64,000 bases of DNA from an uncultured Patescibacteria group bacterium (GCA_947259245.1 CAMYLP010000003.1:27118-91117); one strand, 5' to 3'; positions 7,031 to 56,506 are shown, numbered from the stretch's first letter. The notes: generated from the sequence alone by a model not told the origin. Numbers and translations are program-made.

Positions 7031-7285
7031 CTACTTCTTTTCTGAGGCCTTTTTCTGACTCTTTTCCGTGGCCTCCGTCTTATTCGCGGACTTTTTTGGT
7101 GTCCCGGCAGGGGTGTTTTCACCCATTGCTATGATCTGCTTTCCGCGATACATACCGGTAGCGGGGTCCATAAAATGCCTACGGCGCGAACCGCTAGGCG
7201 TTTTCACAAGACGCGGCGTACCTGCGCGATGATGCGCGCGACGGCTTGCTGTCTTGCTATGGGTTAGCTTCATCCGTACCGACAT
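7031..7285 (-). CDS. rpmF: 50S ribosomal protein L32 with Lys-rich C-terminal tail
   Basis: MSVRMKLTHSKTASRRAHHRAGTP..YRGKQII resembles L32; start trimmed to internal Met. Confidence 0.6.
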   Translation of the reverse strand: MSVRMKLTHSKTASRRAHHRAGTPRLVKTPSGSRRRHFMDPATGMYRGKQIIAMGENTPAGTPKKSANKTEATEKSQKKASEKK

Positions 7286-7375
7286 TGCAGCAACTATACC
7301 CAGAAATGGGAGAAATGCAAGCATTCTTGTCCACTTGTACAGCCTCTGCGCCCCATAAACGAGCTTGTGGGCTCG

Positions 7376-7963
7376 TTACGTACTCCTGACCGCTTTACAG
7401 TAGGTGTGGCGGTGTACGGGCGTTAATCCGTGTCTCTGTATGGCTCGACGATGTATTTCCGTACCATAACCTTTGTGGGTATGGAATTTGTATTCTGGGT
7501 ACCTCGGGTGTTGTTTTCCCATGTACCTATCGCGCGTGACCTTGGCCGCTATAGAAGCTGCACCGATGAGTGGCTCAAGTGCATCACCTCGTATGATAGT
7601 ATCTTGGCTCTTATATTTTTTGGGAGCATAGAGAGCACCATCGAGCAAAATGTGTGTTTCGTCAGGATGTAAGGCCAGCTTGCTAAGACACCGTGACAAA
7701 GCGGTGCGGATTGCCCATTGTATTCCCTTTCGGTCGATCAGTGGTGCCCCCACCATGGAAACCGTAAACCATAGATCTGTGGCCGACATAAGTGCATCAT
7801 ATAATTCTGACCTTTTGTTTTCTGTTACTGACTTGGAGTCACACATCTGCGGCAGTACGTCTGGGACATGACTGGTGTCAATACAAACAGCCCCTACAGC
7901 CACAGGACCTGCGAGAGGTCCCCGCCCAGCTTCATCTATACCCACCAGATAGCGCGCTTTCAT
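7376..7963 (-). CDS. rnhB: ribonuclease HII
   Basis: MKARYLVGIDEAGRGPLAGPVAVGAV RNase HII N-terminal signature. Confidence 0.9.
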   Translation of the reverse strand: MKARYLVGIDEAGRGPLAGPVAVGAVCIDTSHVPDVLPQMCDSKSVTENKRSELYDALMSATDLWFTVSMVGAPLIDRKGIQWAIRTALSRCLSKLALHPDETHILLDGALYAPKKYKSQDTIIRGDALEPLIGAASIAAKVTRDRYMGKQHPRYPEYKFHTHKGYGTEIHRRAIQRHGLTPVHRHTYCKAVRST

Positions 7964-7981
7964 CTACCCATTGTAACAAAA

Positions 7982-7990
7982 TGATATACT
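7982..7990 (+). promoter_or_regulatory. candidate extended -10 (TGaTATACT) 6 nt upstream of dnaE ATG; leaderless transcript possible
   Basis: TG at 7982-83, TATACT 7985-7990, ATG 7997; only 33 nt separates divergent rnhB and dnaE. Confidence 0.25.
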
Positions 7991-7996
7991 TCTCCC

Positions 7997-10900
7997 ATGT
8001 CGACATTTACGCATCTCCACACACACTCGCACTACTCCCTCTTAGGAGCAGTTCCGAAGATACCGCCGCTCGTTGCACGCGCTAAGGAGTATGGATTCAC
8101 ATCACTGGCTCTTACGGACAATGGAGCTCTGTACGGTGCAGTTGAGTTCTATAAAGCATGTCGGAAGGAAAATATTAAGCCGATCATCGGTGTCGATGCC
8201 TACCTTGCGCCGAGAAGCCGAATCGACATGGAACGAGGCATTGACGATAAGCGAACGCGTCTTGTACTACTTGCTGAGAACAACACCGGTTACGTAAACC
8301 TCATACGACTGGTCACAGCATCGTACATGGAGGGATTCTTTGACAAGCCACGCATGGATCGCGAAGTACTTGAGAAGTGGCACGAGGGCGTCATTGCGAT
8401 ACTACCGTCATTCTCGGGAGAGCATATATCCGCCCTCCGTGGATCTGACATGGCAAAAGCGGTTGCCATTGTACGTTGGTATCAGGACACCTTCGGAAAA
8501 GACAATGTGTTCCTGGAACTCTCCCATCACTCTGAGATAGAGGGTCATGAGTATCTCCAGGAACAAATACAGCAGCTGTCGAGCGAGTCAGGCTCTGAAC
8601 TTGTTGCAGCGCACAACACGTACTACTTACATCCTGAGGACAGACTTGCACGCGAAACGATGCTAAAGATCAGCACCACCGGCTCACTAGAGGGAGAGGA
8701 TTATTATGAAGATGAGGACTTGTCATTTATCACTCCTGAGACTGCTGAAAAACTCTTTGCGAATGAGCCGGAAGCGCTTCGAAACACAGCGGCACTGGCT
8801 GAACGATGCAACGTACAGATAGAATTGGGCCACTGGTACTTCCCCGACTTCAAAATAGAATCAGGCCGTACGGCCGATGAAGAACTTCAGCACCTTGCAC
8901 AACGGGGTCTTGCGTGGAGGGGTATGGCGTATGAAGGAACAGTAAAGAAACGTTTGGATTACGAGTTGGACATCATTAGGTCCAAGGGTTACGCAGGATA
9001 CTTTCTTGCAGTGGGTGATCTACTGCGGGAAGCGCGAGAGAGAGGCATTCTGACGACAATACGTGGTTCTGTTGCAGGTTCTCTTACAACATACGTACTT
9101 GGCATAACGAACGTTGACCCGTTAAAGTTGAACCTGCCGTTCGAACGTTTCTTAAATCCACATCGTCCCTCTGCGCCTGATATTGATATGGACTATGCAG
9201 ATAACAGGCGAGACGAAATGATCGAGTATGCAAAGGATAAGTATGGTCATGACAATGTTGCTCAGATCGGAACGTTTGGCACGATGATGGCACGAGCGGT
9301 GGTACGGGACGTAGCACGAGCACTTGGCTACGCGTATGGTGTGGGCGACAAGATAGCAAAAGTAATACCGTTTGGGTCGCAAGGTTTTCCAATGACCATC
9401 GACCACGCTCTTGAAAGTGAAAAAGAGTTTGCTGCCCTCTACAAGAAGGACAAGGACGTACAGCGCATCATTGACCTTGCGAAGAAGATAGAAGGATGTG
9501 CCCGGCACGTAGGCGTGCACGCGGCTGGCGTCGTAATAGCCCCAAGTCCGCTGGACAACTATGTTCCCGTACAGCCAGACCCAAAAGGTGGCGGTAAACT
9601 GATTACACAGTACGACATGCATAGCGTAGGTGAAGATGGTGTTGGACTTCTCAAATTTGACTTTCTTGGCATTAAAAACCTTTCGATACTAGCTGACGCA
9701 ATCGAGCGTGTGAAGGACCGACATGGTGTCGAGGTAGATATTGAGAACATACCACTCGATGATGCACGGACGTATGACATGCTCGCACAGGGTGAGACGG
9801 GAGGCGTATTCCAGTTGAACGGAGCTGCAATGACACGGTATTTGAAGGAGCTCAGACCAACAAGGATCGAGGACATAAACGCCATGATCGCACTCTACCG
9901 GCCGGGTCCAATGAAAAACATTCCCGAATACATTGCACGTAAACAGGGTCGAAAGCCAGTTCGCTATTTCCATCCGCGGGTCGCCAGCTTTCTCGAGCCC
10001 TCGTACGGTATTCTTGTATATCAAGATGACCTTCTCTTTACTGCGCTAGAACTCGCTGGCTACAACTGGGAAACAGTAGACAAGTTTCGTAAGGCAGTTG
10101 GAAAAAAGATTCCAGCTGAAATGGCGAAACAGCATGTTAAGTTTGTTGAAGGTTGTATGGAGCACAGTGACATGTCAAGGCGTGATGCGGAGGGTGTCTG
10201 GGAGTTGTTTGAGCCGTTTCAGGGGTACGGTTTCAACAAGGCGCATGCGGCTAGTTACGGTAAGGTCGCGTACCAAACTGCGTACATGAAGGCGAACTAT
10301 CCTGTGGAGTATATGGCCGCAATACTTACGGCTGACTCTGGCGATATCGATAAGGTAGCGGAGGCAGTTGTGGAGTGCGAGCGGATGAATATTCGGGTGC
10401 TGAAACCAGATGTCAACCAGAGTTTTGATACATTTACGTGCGTGCAAAAGGACGGGAAGGATGCTATACGATTTGGACTCAGCTCGATCAAGAACTTTGG
10501 TGAAGGTATTGCGCATACGATCATACAGGAGCGTGAACAACACGGACCGTACAACACCATCGATGACCTTCTCATGCGTATTCAAAGCAGGAACCTGAAT
10601 AAAAAATCCCTGGAGTCTCTAATCAAGTGTGGTGCATTGGATTCCTTTAAAGTAAAGCGCGGTAGGTTGCTGAAATACATTGACGAGTTGTTGGCCTTCA
10701 ACAAAGAACAGCATCAGGAAGTGGCACAGGCATCGCTCTTCACCGGCGATGTAGGGGGCAACGTTCTATCAATACCCGAAGCACCGGAAGCGTCACTTCA
10801 GGACATGCTTTCTTGGGAGAAGGAGTTGCTCGGTCTATACGTGTCCGGACATCCTCTCGATGTACACAGGGATCGCCTTGAACGCCTTGGACAAACAATA

Positions 10901-52110: not shown

Positions 52111-53394
52111 TCACGCAACATGTGGTGATACTGTTGGGATATCAGCCCAACTACTAGTGTAGCGAGGCGAAAGTGTATTGCTTTTTGGATGCCAGCTTTT
52201 CTCTGTAGTACATCGCAACTCCTCGGCACCAAGCTGTACGGCCCGGTCACCAAAGCGATGTCGTAATGCGTCAAGCGCATGCATAAGTGGCTTCCTCGCC
52301 CCACTCTCCTCGCCAAAGATCGTCCGCGGCATGACGCTCTCCTCTGGAACAATATCCTTCACCATCACACCGGCTTTAGCGTACGGAAAACCTTTTCTAT
52401 ACATGCGCTCGAGTACGCTGAGTGCCGTCTGCACGATGGTGATCGTGTCGTTCGTGTGATGAGTGAGCGTGTCACCATCGTAGGCACTGTAGCGATGTGT
52501 GGTGTGACGAGAGGTACGAATCGTCACATACACCTCGCGTGCCGCGGCACCCTCAACGCGGAGCACCTCCGCCGCCTTGCGCGCGTGGTGTGCTATCGCC
52601 TGCTTGAGACCTGACAGATCGTAAACGGGTCTTCCGAAGGACTGTGAATGAAGGAGTGACTTTCTAAGTGTCGTATCCTCTCCAACAGTAAAACAAGGCG
52701 TACCTCGGAGCTCATAGACGGTGCGCAAACCCCGTACGCTCAGTCGCTTGCGTAGCCACGTATCATCCATGCGGATAAGCTTTCCGGCCGTTGTAACACC
52801 AAGGTCCTTCAACACGGGTCCCAGACGAAATCCAATACCCCACACCTCATCGACCGGGAGCTCCTCAAGTGCAACATTGCGCACGTAGGGCTCAAGAAGA
52901 AGGTTGACCCCACGCCCGCCGTACTTTGGCTTGGCGAAGTGCGTCGCTACTTTTGCAAGGGTCTTTGTATGTGCTACACCCACTGAGACCGGTATGCCGG
53001 TCTCACGTATGACGGCCGTGTGCAGCGCGTGCGCTTGTTGTGCAATATCTCCATCGCGTCCGTCGAGAGCCACAAACGCCTCATCAACCGAGTATGCTTC
53101 TACCGTATCTGCATACCGGCGAAGTACCGACATGATGCGGCGGGACATGTCCCGGTACAGCGCAAAATTGCTAGAGAAAATACTCACGCCGTGCTGATCG
53201 CAACGCTCACGTACTTTAAAGTATGGTTCACCCATAGTGAGTCCAAGTGCCTTCGCCTCTTCAGAACGTGAAATAACACACCCGTCATTGCTCGAAAGCA
53301 CAATGACCGGTTTGTTTCTGAGCTCAGGGCGAAATAACCGCTCGCACGAGACAAAAAAATTATTTGCATCTATCAACACCGTGTATATTGACAT
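52111..53394 (-). CDS. Y-family translesion DNA polymerase (UmuC/DinB-like)
   Basis: IDANNFFVSCERL (Y-family DxD-equivalent start), SRSEEAKALG, little-finger region; 427 aa. Confidence 0.85.
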   Translation of the reverse strand: MSIYTVLIDANNFFVSCERLFRPELRNKPVIVLSSNDGCVISRSEEAKALGLTMGEPYFKVRERCDQHGVSIFSSNFALYRDMSRRIMSVLRRYADTVEAYSVDEAFVALDGRDGDIAQQAHALHTAVIRETGIPVSVGVAHTKTLAKVATHFAKPKYGGRGVNLLLEPYVRNVALEELPVDEVWGIGFRLGPVLKDLGVTTAGKLIRMDDTWLRKRLSVRGLRTVYELRGTPCFTVGEDTTLRKSLLHSQSFGRPVYDLSGLKQAIAHHARKAAEVLRVEGAAAREVYVTIRTSRHTTHRYSAYDGDTLTHHTNDTITIVQTALSVLERMYRKGFPYAKAGVMVKDIVPEESVMPRTIFGEESGARKPLMHALDALRHRFGDRAVQLGAEELRCTTEKSWHPKSNTLSPRYTSSWADIPTVSPHVA

Positions 53395-53440
53395 ATAAGT
53401 ATTAAATGGTATCGTTAAGATCGGAATAAGGAGGTGCGCT

Positions 53441-53626
53441 ATGAGTATTGCAGACTTATTACACCGGAAAGACAGTCAGCATGAAGCCGAGGAAGACATG
53501 CTCGGCGTCGAAGCAAGCGTGGAGATTAAAAACCTGCCGCAAGAGGAGCACCATACCAACGACAGCGACAGTGCGGGGCTGGACGTAGTCGAACATTACA
53601 GGACGGCAGTACAGCCGATCGAATAA
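53441..53626 (+). CDS. hypothetical small acidic protein (61 aa) with perfect Shine-Dalgarno
   Basis: TAAGGAGGT at 53427-53435, 5-nt spacer to ATG; lies between umuD'-like and polY genes on the opposite strand. Confidence 0.4.
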   Translation: MSIADLLHRKDSQHEAEEDMLGVEASVEIKNLPQEEHHTNDSDSAGLDVVEHYRTAVQPIE

Positions 53627-53680
53627 AAAGAACATTATGAGAAGAGAGACCCCAAGCACGCTACTTGGGGTCTTTTGTAC

Positions 53681-54010
53681 TTACATCCTCCGTGCAAGTG
53701 CAATGACCGAACCCCAGTACTCTGCGGCCTCCCCGTCTACCAAGCGTGCCACTACTAACTCCCCTTCCTGCACGAACACCGAAAGCGTGCCCGTGCAAGG
53801 AGGAACAGCCCTGTCCACCACCAAAACATCATCCCTTCGTATGTCGAGCTTGCCACAGACGTGGAGGTCTCCACCCACGCGTACGAAGAAAGTTGAGGTC
53901 GGATGCGCCACAAAGTGCGCGTCAAGTGAGAGAGGGTTCTTGTACTCGTGTTCGTCACCCTCCTCTCCGAGTTCACGTGGTGATGTTCGTATAAAGGAAA
54001 CTGGCTTCAT
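53681..54010 (-). CDS. UmuD'-like S24-fold protein lacking the catalytic Ser/Lys dyad and the N-terminal cleavage arm
   Basis: Aligns to LexA C-domain in same window: VKGESM -> VGGDLH (Ser->Leu), TVKYL -> VVARL (Lys->Ala); 9 nt after preceding gene. Confidence 0.6.
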   Translation of the reverse strand: MKPVSFIRTSPRELGEEGDEHEYKNPLSLDAHFVAHPTSTFFVRVGGDLHVCGKLDIRRDDVLVVDRAVPPCTGTLSVFVQEGELVVARLVDGEAAEYWGSVIALARRM

Positions 54011-54019
54011 AACACAAGC

Positions 54020-55480
54020 TTACTGAGGCATTGAAATGTGAGCGCTCTGCAGAAGTGCCTCGTCTCTGCTGGTCAGTTCGCGTACCGTTACCTTTGGACG
54101 GCGTTTGCCCAGCTCTCGCGTAAGTATCTTGTATGCGTCGTAATCAAAACGAAACTGTGCCGGAATGAATTCCTCCCACTCGGTACCATTGAAATGAAGT
54201 GCGGCGAGCAGTCGCCACTGGTCGACAATGAAGAGCTCTCCCGTACCATCCACACGCCGCTCGTCGATACCCACAGGCCCTGTGTATGGCCACACGTGCA
54301 TACGGTGCGCCTCGAACGCCTCGCGAAAACGTCTGTTGTAATGGCGGTGCTTCTCCTTTCCTATGCACGCACCCCGACACTGCTCTAATTGTTGTGCAAA
54401 ACACGGCGCCTTTGGAGATGATGCTTTTTCTATACCAAGGAGCTGTGGGCAAAGCTCGTACTCCTTTGCAAGCTGACCGAGTACATCACGTGCCTGCTTT
54501 TTTGTTTTGAAGATGGCAGCAATGTTCTTTTCCTCCCCCAACTCTATGGTATCCGCGTGTGAGAGCTCCGTTACATGATACCCTGCGTCGTTTATATCTT
54601 CGCGTACCAGACAGAGTGCGTGCCGCTCACGCGCCCGTACGTTGTAGACAGGCCCTCGGTCCTTGATCAGGTGCGACTCGAGGAGAAGTGCGCCGACCTC
54701 ACCTGCTGTCTCCCTATACTCAATACGCCGTATCTCGGAGAGCATGTCTTTTCCGCGTCCCGAGAGCCCGTCTTTTGCAAAATGTGAGCGGACCCTCGTG
54801 CGTATTTTGCGACTCTTTCCAATATAAAGAAGTTCGTCATCCTTGCCGTGGAAAAAGTAGACACCTGCACCTTCCGGTAGACTCTGCACCATCTCCTCTT
54901 TTACATGCATCGGTAGCCGTCGCACACGTACCTGTTCCTGCATGACCTCGTGCACATGCTCTATACTTAGTTCTTTGTAGGCAACTTGTAAGAACTGCCA
55001 AAGCACCTTTGCGTCATCAAGTGCTCGGTGCCGGTCACCGGGATCGAGGTCATACCGTTTGATGATGCTGTCGAGATTGTGCCGACGCAACTTCGGGTAG
55101 AGCGCCCTAGAGAGTTTTGCGGTGCAGAGGTACGGGTATGAAAAGGTGATGCCAAGGCGTCGGAACTCCTCAGAGAGGAAGCCGTAGTCAAAAGGAGCAT
55201 TGTGTGCAACGAAGAGCGCTCCCTCAAGAAACTCTGCAACCTCAAGCGCCACCTCGTCGAAGGTGGGCGCGCGTACAAGCATCGAGCTGGCAATACCCGT
55301 AAGTGATGTAATAAATGCCGGTACCGGCATGCCGGGGTCAACGAACGTACGGTACTCCCGTACGATCTCACCCCGCTCCACACGCACAAGACCTACTTCC
55401 ATCACCCGATGATGTCGGGGGCTCGTACCCGTCGTCTCAAGGTCTATAAACACCAGTGGTGTTTTATCGTCTACTTGCAT
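54020..55480 (-). CDS. DnaQ-type 3'-5' exonuclease fused to GIY-YIG / UvrC N-terminal-like (Cho-like) nuclease
   Basis: Exo I FIDLETTG, Exo II FVAHNAPFDYGFL, Exo III HRALDDAKV; GVYFFHG..LLYIGKS GIY-YIG; UvrC-like CFAQQLEQCRGAC. Confidence 0.8.
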   Translation of the reverse strand: MQVDDKTPLVFIDLETTGTSPRHHRVMEVGLVRVERGEIVREYRTFVDPGMPVPAFITSLTGIASSMLVRAPTFDEVALEVAEFLEGALFVAHNAPFDYGFLSEEFRRLGITFSYPYLCTAKLSRALYPKLRRHNLDSIIKRYDLDPGDRHRALDDAKVLWQFLQVAYKELSIEHVHEVMQEQVRVRRLPMHVKEEMVQSLPEGAGVYFFHGKDDELLYIGKSRKIRTRVRSHFAKDGLSGRGKDMLSEIRRIEYRETAGEVGALLLESHLIKDRGPVYNVRARERHALCLVREDINDAGYHVTELSHADTIELGEEKNIAAIFKTKKQARDVLGQLAKEYELCPQLLGIEKASSPKAPCFAQQLEQCRGACIGKEKHRHYNRRFREAFEAHRMHVWPYTGPVGIDERRVDGTGELFIVDQWRLLAALHFNGTEWEEFIPAQFRFDYDAYKILTRELGKRRPKVTVRELTSRDEALLQSAHISMPQ

Positions 55481-55588: not shown

Positions 55589-56155
55589 TTATGCATATGT
55601 TCTGATAACGCTCCGCACAACACCGCCAACCTCAAGTGACTGCTCGGGATGTAGGTCCGGGTACTCTTCGTTTGCCGCTTCAAGGTACTTACGCCCGCGT
55701 TTCTCACGCAGGTACTTAACCGTCCATTCACCATCAATGCTTGCAACCACGATGTCATTCAATCGTGCGGTCTCTGTGCGCTCTACCAAAAGAAGATCCC
55801 CCTCATAAATACCCGCGTCTATCATAGACTCTCCCTTCACGCGCAATAAATAGAGTTTATCCCGACTCCCTAAGAGGAGCTCGTCCATGGTGACGTGGTC
55901 AAGAGCTATTTCCTCTGCGGGTGTTGGGAACCCCGCTTCGATGTAACCCACCAGTGGCACCTCGTCGCCTAGAGCAAGCGGCACAAGCTTGCCGCGTCCA
56001 TCCTTACGGACAACGCCTGCGTCTATCAGTTTTTCAACCACCTTTGCAACGGCGTTCTTTGAGGCAAAGCCGAAAAGAGCACACATCTCGCTGTAGCCCG
56101 GCATTCGTTTGTGCTTTCGATAAAAAGTCTGCAGCTGTTTCTTATACTGTTCCAT
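55589..56155 (-). CDS. lexA: LexA repressor
   Basis: N-terminal wHTH; VKGESM catalytic Ser and TVKYL Lys; AG cleavage-site context. Confidence 0.9.
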   Translation of the reverse strand: MEQYKKQLQTFYRKHKRMPGYSEMCALFGFASKNAVAKVVEKLIDAGVVRKDGRGKLVPLALGDEVPLVGYIEAGFPTPAEEIALDHVTMDELLLGSRDKLYLLRVKGESMIDAGIYEGDLLLVERTETARLNDIVVASIDGEWTVKYLREKRGRKYLEAANEEYPDLHPEQSLEVGGVVRSVIRTYA

Positions 56156-56181: not shown

Positions 56182-56448
56182 CTACGCCACACCAAAGCCG
56201 AGTACACGGCTCATCACGCCGCGACTGAGACTGCGGTGCACGGGACTCTTCACGCGCCGCAGGGTCTTGGCGCGCTTAGGGACCAGTATTGTATCTTCCT
56301 CGTTCATACTTCGGAGTGTCGCGAGAAGCTCTTTATGGTGGCGAGCTTCCTTCTGGAAGGACTGTCCCCTGATGATCTTGCGGTCAATGCGGTCGTTTAT
56401 CTTTTCGAGTTCCTTGTGGATCTCTTTAGAAAGTGTGCTTTTGCTCAT
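56182..56448 (-). CDS. hypothetical basic 88-aa protein, first gene of the LexA-box-controlled transcript
   Basis: ATG 38 nt downstream of LexA box/promoter; no TM; helical, K/R-rich. Confidence 0.45.
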   Translation of the reverse strand: MSKSTLSKEIHKELEKINDRIDRKIIRGQSFQKEARHHKELLATLRSMNEEDTILVPKRAKTLRRVKSPVHRSLSRGVMSRVLGFGVA

Positions 56449-56477: not shown

Positions 56478-56506
56478 ATTGTAGGTGAACGTTCGTTCAC
56501 CGTCAA
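56478..56506 (-). promoter_or_regulatory. LexA-repressed promoter: TTGACG-17-TACAAT with Cheo-type LexA box GTGAAC-gaac-GTTCAC filling the spacer
   Basis: rc of cgtcaa 56501-06 (-35), attgta 56478-83 (-10); GAAC-N4-GTTC palindrome 56485-56500. Confidence 0.6.

Follow-up and report, generated by a model that had tools for sequence, protein, structure and literature searches.

The 64,000-nucleotide window of DNA analysed here, from an uncultured Patescibacteria bacterium (GCA_947259245.1, CAMYLP010000003.1:27118-91117), encodes a 109-residue protein that is a pseudo-protease of the UmuD family: it lacks the catalytic dyad and the cleavage site of the autoproteolytic UmuDs, and it scores below the cut-off of their curated model. 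Its gene adjoins one for a UmuC-type Y-family DNA polymerase (Table 1). In the textbook account, SOS mutagenesis has a second lock, the cleavage of UmuD stimulated by RecA. We propose, with a probability of roughly 0.55, that the 109-residue protein is a dedicated non-proteolytic small subunit of the neighbouring UmuC, made from a LexA-repressed damage-response operon that is conserved in Patescibacteria.

A UmuD homologue without a catalytic dyad

An earlier annotation of the window (the original prediction) had taken the protein for a pre-processed, catalytically dead UmuD'-like protein that aligns along its length with the C-terminal S24 domain of the LexA encoded nearby. The open reading frame (ORF) is real and starts with ATG, and the S24 assignment was borne out by profile and structure matches. 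A profile of the protein and its relatives matched the E. coli UmuD and UmuD' chains among solved structures with E values of about 1e-16, against 5e-4 for LexA, and profile-profile comparison with canonical UmuDs (hhalign) gave a probability of 99.9% and an E value of 8e-37. The closest structural matches of the protein, in structure predictions made as single-chain monomer models, are S24 domains. The alignment to LexA, whose gene lies 1.58 kb away, exists but is weak (21% identity, E 0.019 in BLASTP), and the Pfam Peptidase_S24 match is barely over the gathering threshold. With the fold and significant similarity both present, the protein belongs to the Peptidase S24/UmuD family and is, by descent and fold, a UmuD homologue, although it scores only 43.7 bits with the curated UmuD model (NCBIfam PRK10276; cut-off 110) and 14 bits with the LexA model (cut-off 111).

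The protein is neither a HumD nor a YolD nor a LexA. A repressor of the LexA or phage CI type is ruled out, since only 28 residues precede the S24 core and there is no helix-turn-helix. The original prediction had itself raised two alternatives, a different fold of the YolD or SH3-like kind and a Ser/Lys dyad placed elsewhere in the protein. The first is ruled out by the S24 structural matches and by the lack of a PF08863 match at E values up to 1, and the second by the family alignments, which contain no conserved Lys in the globular domain.

The two substitutions that defined the protein as dead are confirmed. In the BLASTP alignment to LexA, VGGDLH stands opposite VKGESM, and VVARL opposite TVKYL. 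Leu49 therefore occupies the position of the catalytic Ser (Ser60 of E. coli UmuD) and Ala88 that of the catalytic Lys (Lys97). The only Lys residues in the protein are K2, K24 and K54, and no Lys is invariant in the globular domain across the family alignments, so that no residue can act as the general base. Among 55 family members the Lys97 position is taken by Cys in 35, by Arg in 6, by Ala in 3 and by Gly, Met or Ser in 2 each, with Lys not among the residues listed, and the loop around Ser60 is substituted or expanded across the family. Residues 1-30 (MKPVSFIRTSPRELGEEGDEHEYKNPLSLD) carry no Ala-Gly or Cys-Gly dipeptide, again as predicted; they include E13-L14-G15-E16, and the site is variable across the family. 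Of the properties of an autoproteolytic UmuD, the protein thus has the umuC neighbour and the LexA control, and has neither the dyad nor the cleavage site. With both of these gone, RecA*-stimulated self-cleavage has no part in its life cycle, which agrees with the claim that none would be needed; judged by its residues, the protein cannot cleave itself and can never be converted to a UmuD' form.

The N-terminal arm is retained

Two linked claims did not survive: that the protein starts where UmuD' begins, with no arm, and that it is therefore already processed. In the profile alignment, window residue 19 stands opposite residue 20 of P0018, a cleavable 129-residue UmuD (A14^G15), and N-terminal overhangs of 18 residues in the 109-residue protein and 19 in P0018 extend beyond it. 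In the alignment to E. coli UmuD, N25 pairs with Q36, and the UmuD' start (Gly25) therefore falls at about window residue 14-15. The ORF starts some 13-14 residues upstream of the UmuD' N-terminus, and it keeps 14 residues of arm before the cleavage-equivalent position while lacking the GFPSPA neo-N-terminus. The arm preceding the globular domain comes to about 28 residues, compared with about 15 in E. coli UmuD' and about 39 in full-length E. coli UmuD.

A strictly pre-truncated UmuD' without an arm, like HumD of phage P1, would fit a length of 109 residues (UmuD' has 115), the absent cleavage site and the weak match of 32 bits to the NCBIfam HumD model. We consider it very unlikely. The protein is short because about 20 internal residues are deleted after the Lys position, not because of truncation at the N-terminal end; its N-terminus reaches about 14 residues beyond the UmuD' start; the GFPSPA motif, which opens HumD (MGFPSPAADYVE) and is conserved in UmuD', is absent; and the HumD score (NF051876, 32.2 bits) compares with a cut-off of 120, so that the protein is no member of that family.

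The overhang is colinear with a canonical arm (VSF with PLF, TSP with S/RP, A/E-L-G with A-A^G). The hhalign local alignment stops at residue 19 and lends no statistical support to equating the arm tip with the canonical PLF...AG segment; colinearity and the shared F, P, A and G positions suggest that the two may be equivalent. On this alignment, the protein is best described as a non-cleavable, arm-bearing UmuD homologue that is colinear with short cleavable UmuDs.

No other segment of the family is as well conserved as the tip of this arm, residues 1-11. M1, K2, V4, F6, R8, T9 and P11 are invariant in family alignment A2, and the pattern M-x(1-3)-[VIL]-x-F is found at the N-terminus of 53 of the 55 members. 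The tip has a predicted local distance difference test (pLDDT) score below 50 in the monomer model and is predicted to be disordered; the linker between it and the domain varies in length and carries a CxxC insert in one subtype.

A family of dead UmuDs in Patescibacteria

A first search returned about 15 relatives that share the N-terminus MK(P/S)VSF(I/V)RT(S/A)P and a PLSLD motif and lack both Ser and Lys. An exhaustive profile search together with a second, word-indexed search extended the family to about 55 clusters at 90% identity, scoring 122-197 bits. Only two double-domain UmuD-like proteins fall in or close below this range, at 133 and 114 bits, and the highest score of a single-domain canonical UmuD is 105 bits. 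Every taxonomically labelled member comes from Patescibacteria (the candidate phyla radiation, CPR), namely Candidatus Saccharibacteria, Paceibacterota and a Parcubacteria bacterium. Members are labelled 'hypothetical protein', 'DNA polymerase V' or 'LexA' in their sources; they should not be named autoproteolytic subunits.

The family has three length subtypes, all without the dyad: a short one of 109-115 residues, which includes the window protein and in which the internal deletion removes two strands after the Lys position; a long one of 129-131 residues; and a third of 145-167 residues, which has the CxxC insert in the arm linker. An invariant Asp (Asp30 in the window) stands where E. coli UmuD has Asn41, position 52 is Phe or Tyr in 100% of the family, and position 94 is Phe, Leu or Met in 100%. 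Between the window and its two nearest orthologues, the nonsynonymous divergence (dN) of the UmuD-like gene is 0.40-0.47 with synonymous divergence (dS) saturated, while umuC has a dN of 0.26-0.32 and lexA one of about 0.10. The ORF is intact in every locus, and the gene is clearly constrained; together this points to a functional gene, not a decaying one.

In the CxxC subtype (P0025-P0031, P0174-P0205; L085 6001-6471, L087 6001-6471) the Lys97 position is a Cys (LCR) and a further Cys lies in LVCG; all four Cys residues co-occur in 24 sequences. This co-occurrence suggests a metal or disulfide site that would tie the arm to the dead active site. The arm is of low confidence in an AlphaFold2 model of one member, P0176.

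Two other groups of UmuD-like proteins were seen. Four proteins of 250-285 residues (P0029, P0032, P0033 and P0036) contain two tandem UmuD-like S24 domains and, from their domain layout, look like covalent UmuD pseudo-dimers; in P0032, P0033 and P0036 the Ser and Lys are lost in domain 1, and GDSM and the Lys are kept in domain 2. A separate group of about 130 residues (P0039, P0047) begins MPFNPID...; in it Ala or Gly replaces the catalytic Ser and Arg the catalytic Lys, and therefore the dyad may have been lost more than once.

The gene lies in a LexA-controlled operon beside umuC

We read eight loci: the window and L001, L003, L006, L085, L087, L089 and L091. In all eight the gene order is small ORF, lexA, dead umuD, umuC. 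A gene for a DEDD exonuclease fused to a Cho-like nuclease stands between lexA and the dead umuD in six of the eight, including the window and L006, and is absent from L085 and L091. A LexA box is found at the equivalent place in L001, L003, L085, L087 and L089 as well as the window, making six loci. An SNase gene is predicted divergently upstream in most loci, and genes for UDG, GrpE and DnaK are predicted downstream in some. The only S24 ORF in the 64-kb window besides the UmuD-like one is LexA, and no cleavable UmuD was found in the window or in any locus read.

Table 1. Features of the window that bear on the UmuD-like protein, in window coordinates.
Feature	Position	Strand	Basis or remark
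Non-catalytic UmuD-like gene (short subtype of the Patescibacteria family)	53681..54010	-	ORF; Pfam S24; UmuD' is the best solved relative
Arm tip MKPVSFIRTSP, codons 1-11, best-conserved segment of the family	53978..54010	-	Alignment, translation
Leu49 codon, position of the catalytic Ser (E. coli UmuD Ser60)	53864..53866	-	Alignments
Ala88 codon, position of the catalytic Lys (E. coli UmuD Lys97)	53747..53749	-	Alignments
UmuC-type Y-family polymerase, 427 residues	52111..53394	-	Pfam IMS, IMS_C, DUF4113; NCBIfam UmuC, 335 bits
DEDD exonuclease and Cho-like GIY-YIG nuclease fusion, 486 residues	54020..55480	-	Directly upstream of the umuD-like gene
Canonical LexA; GESM Ser, VKYL Lys and AG site intact	55589..56155	-	Alignments
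88-residue ORF leading the operon	56182..56448	-	60-67% identity in L003, L089
Sigma-70-type promoter, TTGACG-17-TACAAT	56478..56506	-	LexA box in spacer
LexA box, palindrome GTGAACGAACGTTCAC, GAAC-N4-GTTC	56485-56500		In promoter spacer

The TAA of the exonuclease/Cho gene (54011-54022 region) lies 9 nt before the ATG of the UmuD-like gene and in frame with it, with no Shine-Dalgarno sequence between, an arrangement that suggests that the two genes are translationally coupled. This arrangement also raises the question of whether the ORF is the read-through 3' end of the exonuclease/Cho gene, a mis-called ORF or a decaying pseudogene, and it is true that the gene evolves fastest in its operon and that the protein barely clears the Pfam threshold. 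We find this hardly credible. The ORF is intact, with an N-terminus conserved in about 55 clusters, and dN is far under the saturated dS. In L003 the frames of the exonuclease/Cho and umuD-like genes differ, with 1 nt between the genes, and the exonuclease gene is missing from other loci, so that the shared frame in the window is a coincidence. Read-through or fusion is ruled out by these differing frames and by the absence of the gene from L085 and L091.

The dead umuD adjoins a umuC for a catalytically intact polymerase with a DUF4113 domain in each of the eight loci. In the window the polymerase, a Y-family enzyme by its Pfam and NCBIfam matches, as the original prediction had it, has its catalytic residues intact (D9, D103-E104), the RecA-NT region represented by DUF4113, and a conserved C-terminal tail, LSPRYTSSW. 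The UmuCs beside dead UmuDs make up a group of their own, 45-67% identical to each other and 37-42% identical to UmuCs beside cleavable UmuDs. Canonical cleavable umuDC pairs of CPR bacteria (that of Kaiserbacteria P0238 and that of P0018) have the order CAP-domain gene, umuD, umuC, without lexA. Given this different neighbourhood, the dead gene is not simply to be read as a cleavable-umuD locus that lost catalysis.

The C-terminal tails of the polymerases, which carry the motif LSPRYT(S/T)xW, also differ between the two groups in a small sample of seven against three (window tail region 52111-52150). In the seven UmuCs with dead UmuDs that were compared (the window, L001, L003, L085, L087, L089 and L091) the tail runs at least 3-5 residues past a conserved Val (LSPRYT..W....V), and in L087 it is much longer than in the others; in two CPR UmuCs with cleavable UmuDs (L093, L095) and in E. 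coli UmuC it runs only 1-2 residues past it. In a published model of DNA polymerase V (Pol V), the terminal carboxylate of UmuC contacts S36, T71 and K73 of UmuD' (PMC11791011). By adding 24, these would be S60, T95 and K97 of UmuD, which is the catalytic site lost here. The tail pattern is consistent with the idea that the carboxylate ceased to dock in the cleft when the dyad was lost.

Three side observations concern the space between the umuD-like gene and umuC, or umuC itself. In the window a 61-residue acidic ORF without a Pfam match lies between the two genes on the opposite strand (53441-53626, +), with a strong ribosome-binding site (AAGGAGGTG), a promoter-like TTGACA-16-TATCGT site and a perfect hairpin of 10 bp with TTTTGT after it in the flanking sites at 53388-53415 and 53647-53673; it gave no BLASTP alignment with the opposite-strand small ORFs at this position in L089 and L087. 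In L001, from Saccharibacteria, a 155-residue PF27709 gene occupies this place, and the UmuC (7195-8721) has 508 residues with two low-complexity inserts, rich in Ser, Pro and Cys, in its N-terminal catalytic region. In L006, from Paceibacterota, umuC is split into ORFs of 324 and 134 residues (8509-9483 and 9484-9888), either by a frameshift that makes it a pseudogene or by an assembly error.

A proposed non-proteolytic subunit or a possible brake

In the mechanism that we favour, DNA damage would lead to cleavage of LexA and transcription of the operon, and the 109-residue protein would bind UmuC without proteolytic maturation, its conserved genetic N-terminus standing in for the post-cleavage N-terminus that UmuD' has in Pol V. 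RecA would still touch UmuC, with the RecA-NT (DUF4113) region as the contact. Translesion synthesis would then be licensed at transcription, through LexA and possibly with RecA binding in addition, and not by proteolysis. We infer both the partnership with UmuC and the transcriptional licensing. Published models have the arms at the N-termini of UmuD', YqjX and PPB2 inserted in their polymerases, and a genetic N-terminus that is conserved and sits on a variable linker agrees with this arrangement. The oligomeric state of the family may differ from that of E. coli UmuD, which the N41D substitution makes monomeric (PMC5342242), since the Asp at this position is invariant. The original prediction had called the protein a constitutively active UmuD' analogue; this is plausible, and such activity would need a new role for the arm because arm-bearing, non-cleavable E. 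coli UmuD suppresses mutagenesis.

Several observations weigh against a subunit role. In E. coli, non-cleavable UmuD that bears the arm (S60A; UmuD 8 S60A) strongly cuts ultraviolet (UV) mutagenesis (PMC3901139, PMC5342242), and the arm tip of the window protein is similar to UmuD's PLF18 segment, by which the arm is held down on the globular domain. The modelled arm is of low confidence (pLDDT below 50), and the contact with UmuC is a predicted one. The short subtype found in the window lacks two strands (beta5-beta6, about 20 residues) that other members have, and its gene is the fastest-evolving in the operon. Finally, 286 bp containing the opposite-strand 61-residue ORF part the gene from umuC, and with this ORF and its promoter-like and terminator-like sites in between, co-transcription of umuC in the window is uncertain.

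The same observations on the arm bear on a different role, in which the protein is a permanently uncleaved UmuD analogue that binds UmuC, the groove of the RecA filament, or both, and as a brake or decoy restrains translesion synthesis, recombination or LexA cleavage in the manner of a checkpoint or of negative feedback. In E. coli, UmuD that is full-length and non-cleavable stops UmuC-dependent mutagenesis and has a part in a damage checkpoint (PMC3901139, PMC5342242), and the 109-residue protein is colinear with a full-length short UmuD. In a cryo-electron microscopy structure of RecA with UmuD, the pocket for RecA Phe203 is made of Y52, residue 54, F94 and, in trans, F18, and there is an acidic patch of D91 and E93 (PMC9926225); the residues at these contacts are kept in the window protein as F41, V43, L85, F6, E82 and E84. 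The pocket residues are, however, also core or near-core residues of the fold, and their conservation is not specific to RecA binding. The gene is kept beside a catalytically intact UmuC across deeply diverged CPR lineages, and a polymerase with only a permanent inhibitor, there being no cleavable UmuD in the window or the loci read, would be expected to decay. Because of the intact UmuC and the missing cleavable UmuD, we rank this role below that of a subunit and regard it as unlikely, if well short of negligible.

The subunit reading can be extended, in a form that we hold to be quite improbable, to a replacement of the proteolytic Pol V switch by a reversible conformational one in Patescibacteria. 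Here the non-cleavable UmuD would dock in the RecA filament groove through F41, V43 and L85 together with F6 of the arm; docking would free or reposition the conserved N-terminal tip, which would engage UmuC; and translesion synthesis would be on only while RecA filaments last and would go off without degradation of UmuD'. In the CxxC subtype the switch would include the four-Cys site, which takes in what was the Lys97 position and would hold the arm tethered above the dead active site.

Comparison with known systems

Among solved structures the best relative of the protein is E. coli UmuD/UmuD' (E 1e-16), with which it also shares a neighbouring UmuC bearing an LSPRYT tail and the RecA-NT/DUF4113 region, control by LexA, and the hydrophobic and acidic residues that contact RecA. 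It differs in having no Ser60, no Lys97 and no Cys-Gly or Ala-Gly site, in an arm 10-11 residues shorter than in E. coli UmuD, with a conserved tip of its own (MKPVSFxRT), in the Asp at the Asn41 position and, in the window's subtype, in the absence of beta5-beta6.

HumD of phage P1 is likewise a UmuD-family protein with no need for RecA-mediated cleavage, and P1-type HumD is already known as a genuinely pre-cut UmuD' (PMC7092418). The P1-type HumD of phage JL22, however, begins MGFPSPAADYVE, exactly at the UmuD' N-terminus, whereas the window protein begins MKPVSFIRTSPRELGE, about 14 residues upstream. JL22 HumD also keeps, as read from its sequence, Ser and Lys at the dyad positions, and it has no umuC beside it in the JL22 record, unlike the window protein with its cognate umuC.

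YolD/YqjX, the partner of the Gram-positive polymerases PolY2/UvrX (Timinskas and Venclovas 2019, 2026), is a small non-proteolytic partner of a UmuC-like polymerase with a beta-barrel core and a conserved N-terminal arm that is proposed to enter the polymerase, and its predicted action involves no cleavage and may be that of a monomer. It belongs to the PF08863 family, in contrast to the window protein, which is S24/UmuD in both sequence and fold. By analogy, the window protein would functionally be most like a YolD/YqjX-type non-proteolytic accessory subunit, reached from a UmuD ancestor by losing catalysis.

Some laboratory variants of UmuD (S60A, K97A, UmuD 8 S60A and UmuD 18) also are not cleaved and keep the arm wholly or in part. 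On a colinear map that sets F6 against F18, the window protein approximates UmuD without its first 12 residues and with S60L and K97A. The variants are engineered, and S60A and UmuD 8 S60A are mutagenesis-deficient, whereas in nature the family and UmuC have stayed together over long evolution. UmuD 18, whose arms are free, is weakly mutable and confers UV resistance, and it is the only variant that partly mimics UmuD' (PMC5342242).

Bypassing UmuD cleavage is therefore not new, since HumD does so, as does YolD/YqjX of Gram-positive bacteria. Our literature search, which did not extend to a 2017 paper on the SOS network of Patescibacteria, found no description of the protein and no paper pairing UmuD with Saccharibacteria; among papers naming UmuC with Patescibacteria, judged by term search or title, none was seen to describe the 109-residue protein. 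The 2017 paper, by Sanchez-Osuna, Barbe and Erill (Environ Microbiol 19:3465; cited in PMC7739468), reportedly treats that SOS network.

What sets the family apart is that a whole lineage keeps UmuC alongside an uncleavable UmuD. Either licensing of polymerases of the Pol V type can do without proteolysis, with a genetic N-terminus replacing the processed one, or the checkpoint and decoy roles of UmuD can be selected on their own. The family supplies natural variants for the roles of the UmuD arm and of the former active-site cleft in Pol V assembly, and it also bears on the need for a dimer and on the control of mutagenesis in very small genomes.

Other genes of the operon

The ORF that leads the operon, of 87-91 residues, is first at six loci (L001 2590-2865, L003 3680-3946, L085 4670-4939, L087 3677-3943, L089 3668-3931 and the window) and has the consensus MSK.TL..EI.KEL..LND.IDRKIIKG...EAR.H.ELLATL...KSPV. 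Its product had no significant Pfam match in the 88-residue window copy and fits no family; it may be a lineage-specific SOS effector. In L001 a 123-residue 23S_rRNA_IVP gene lies between lexA and the exonuclease gene.
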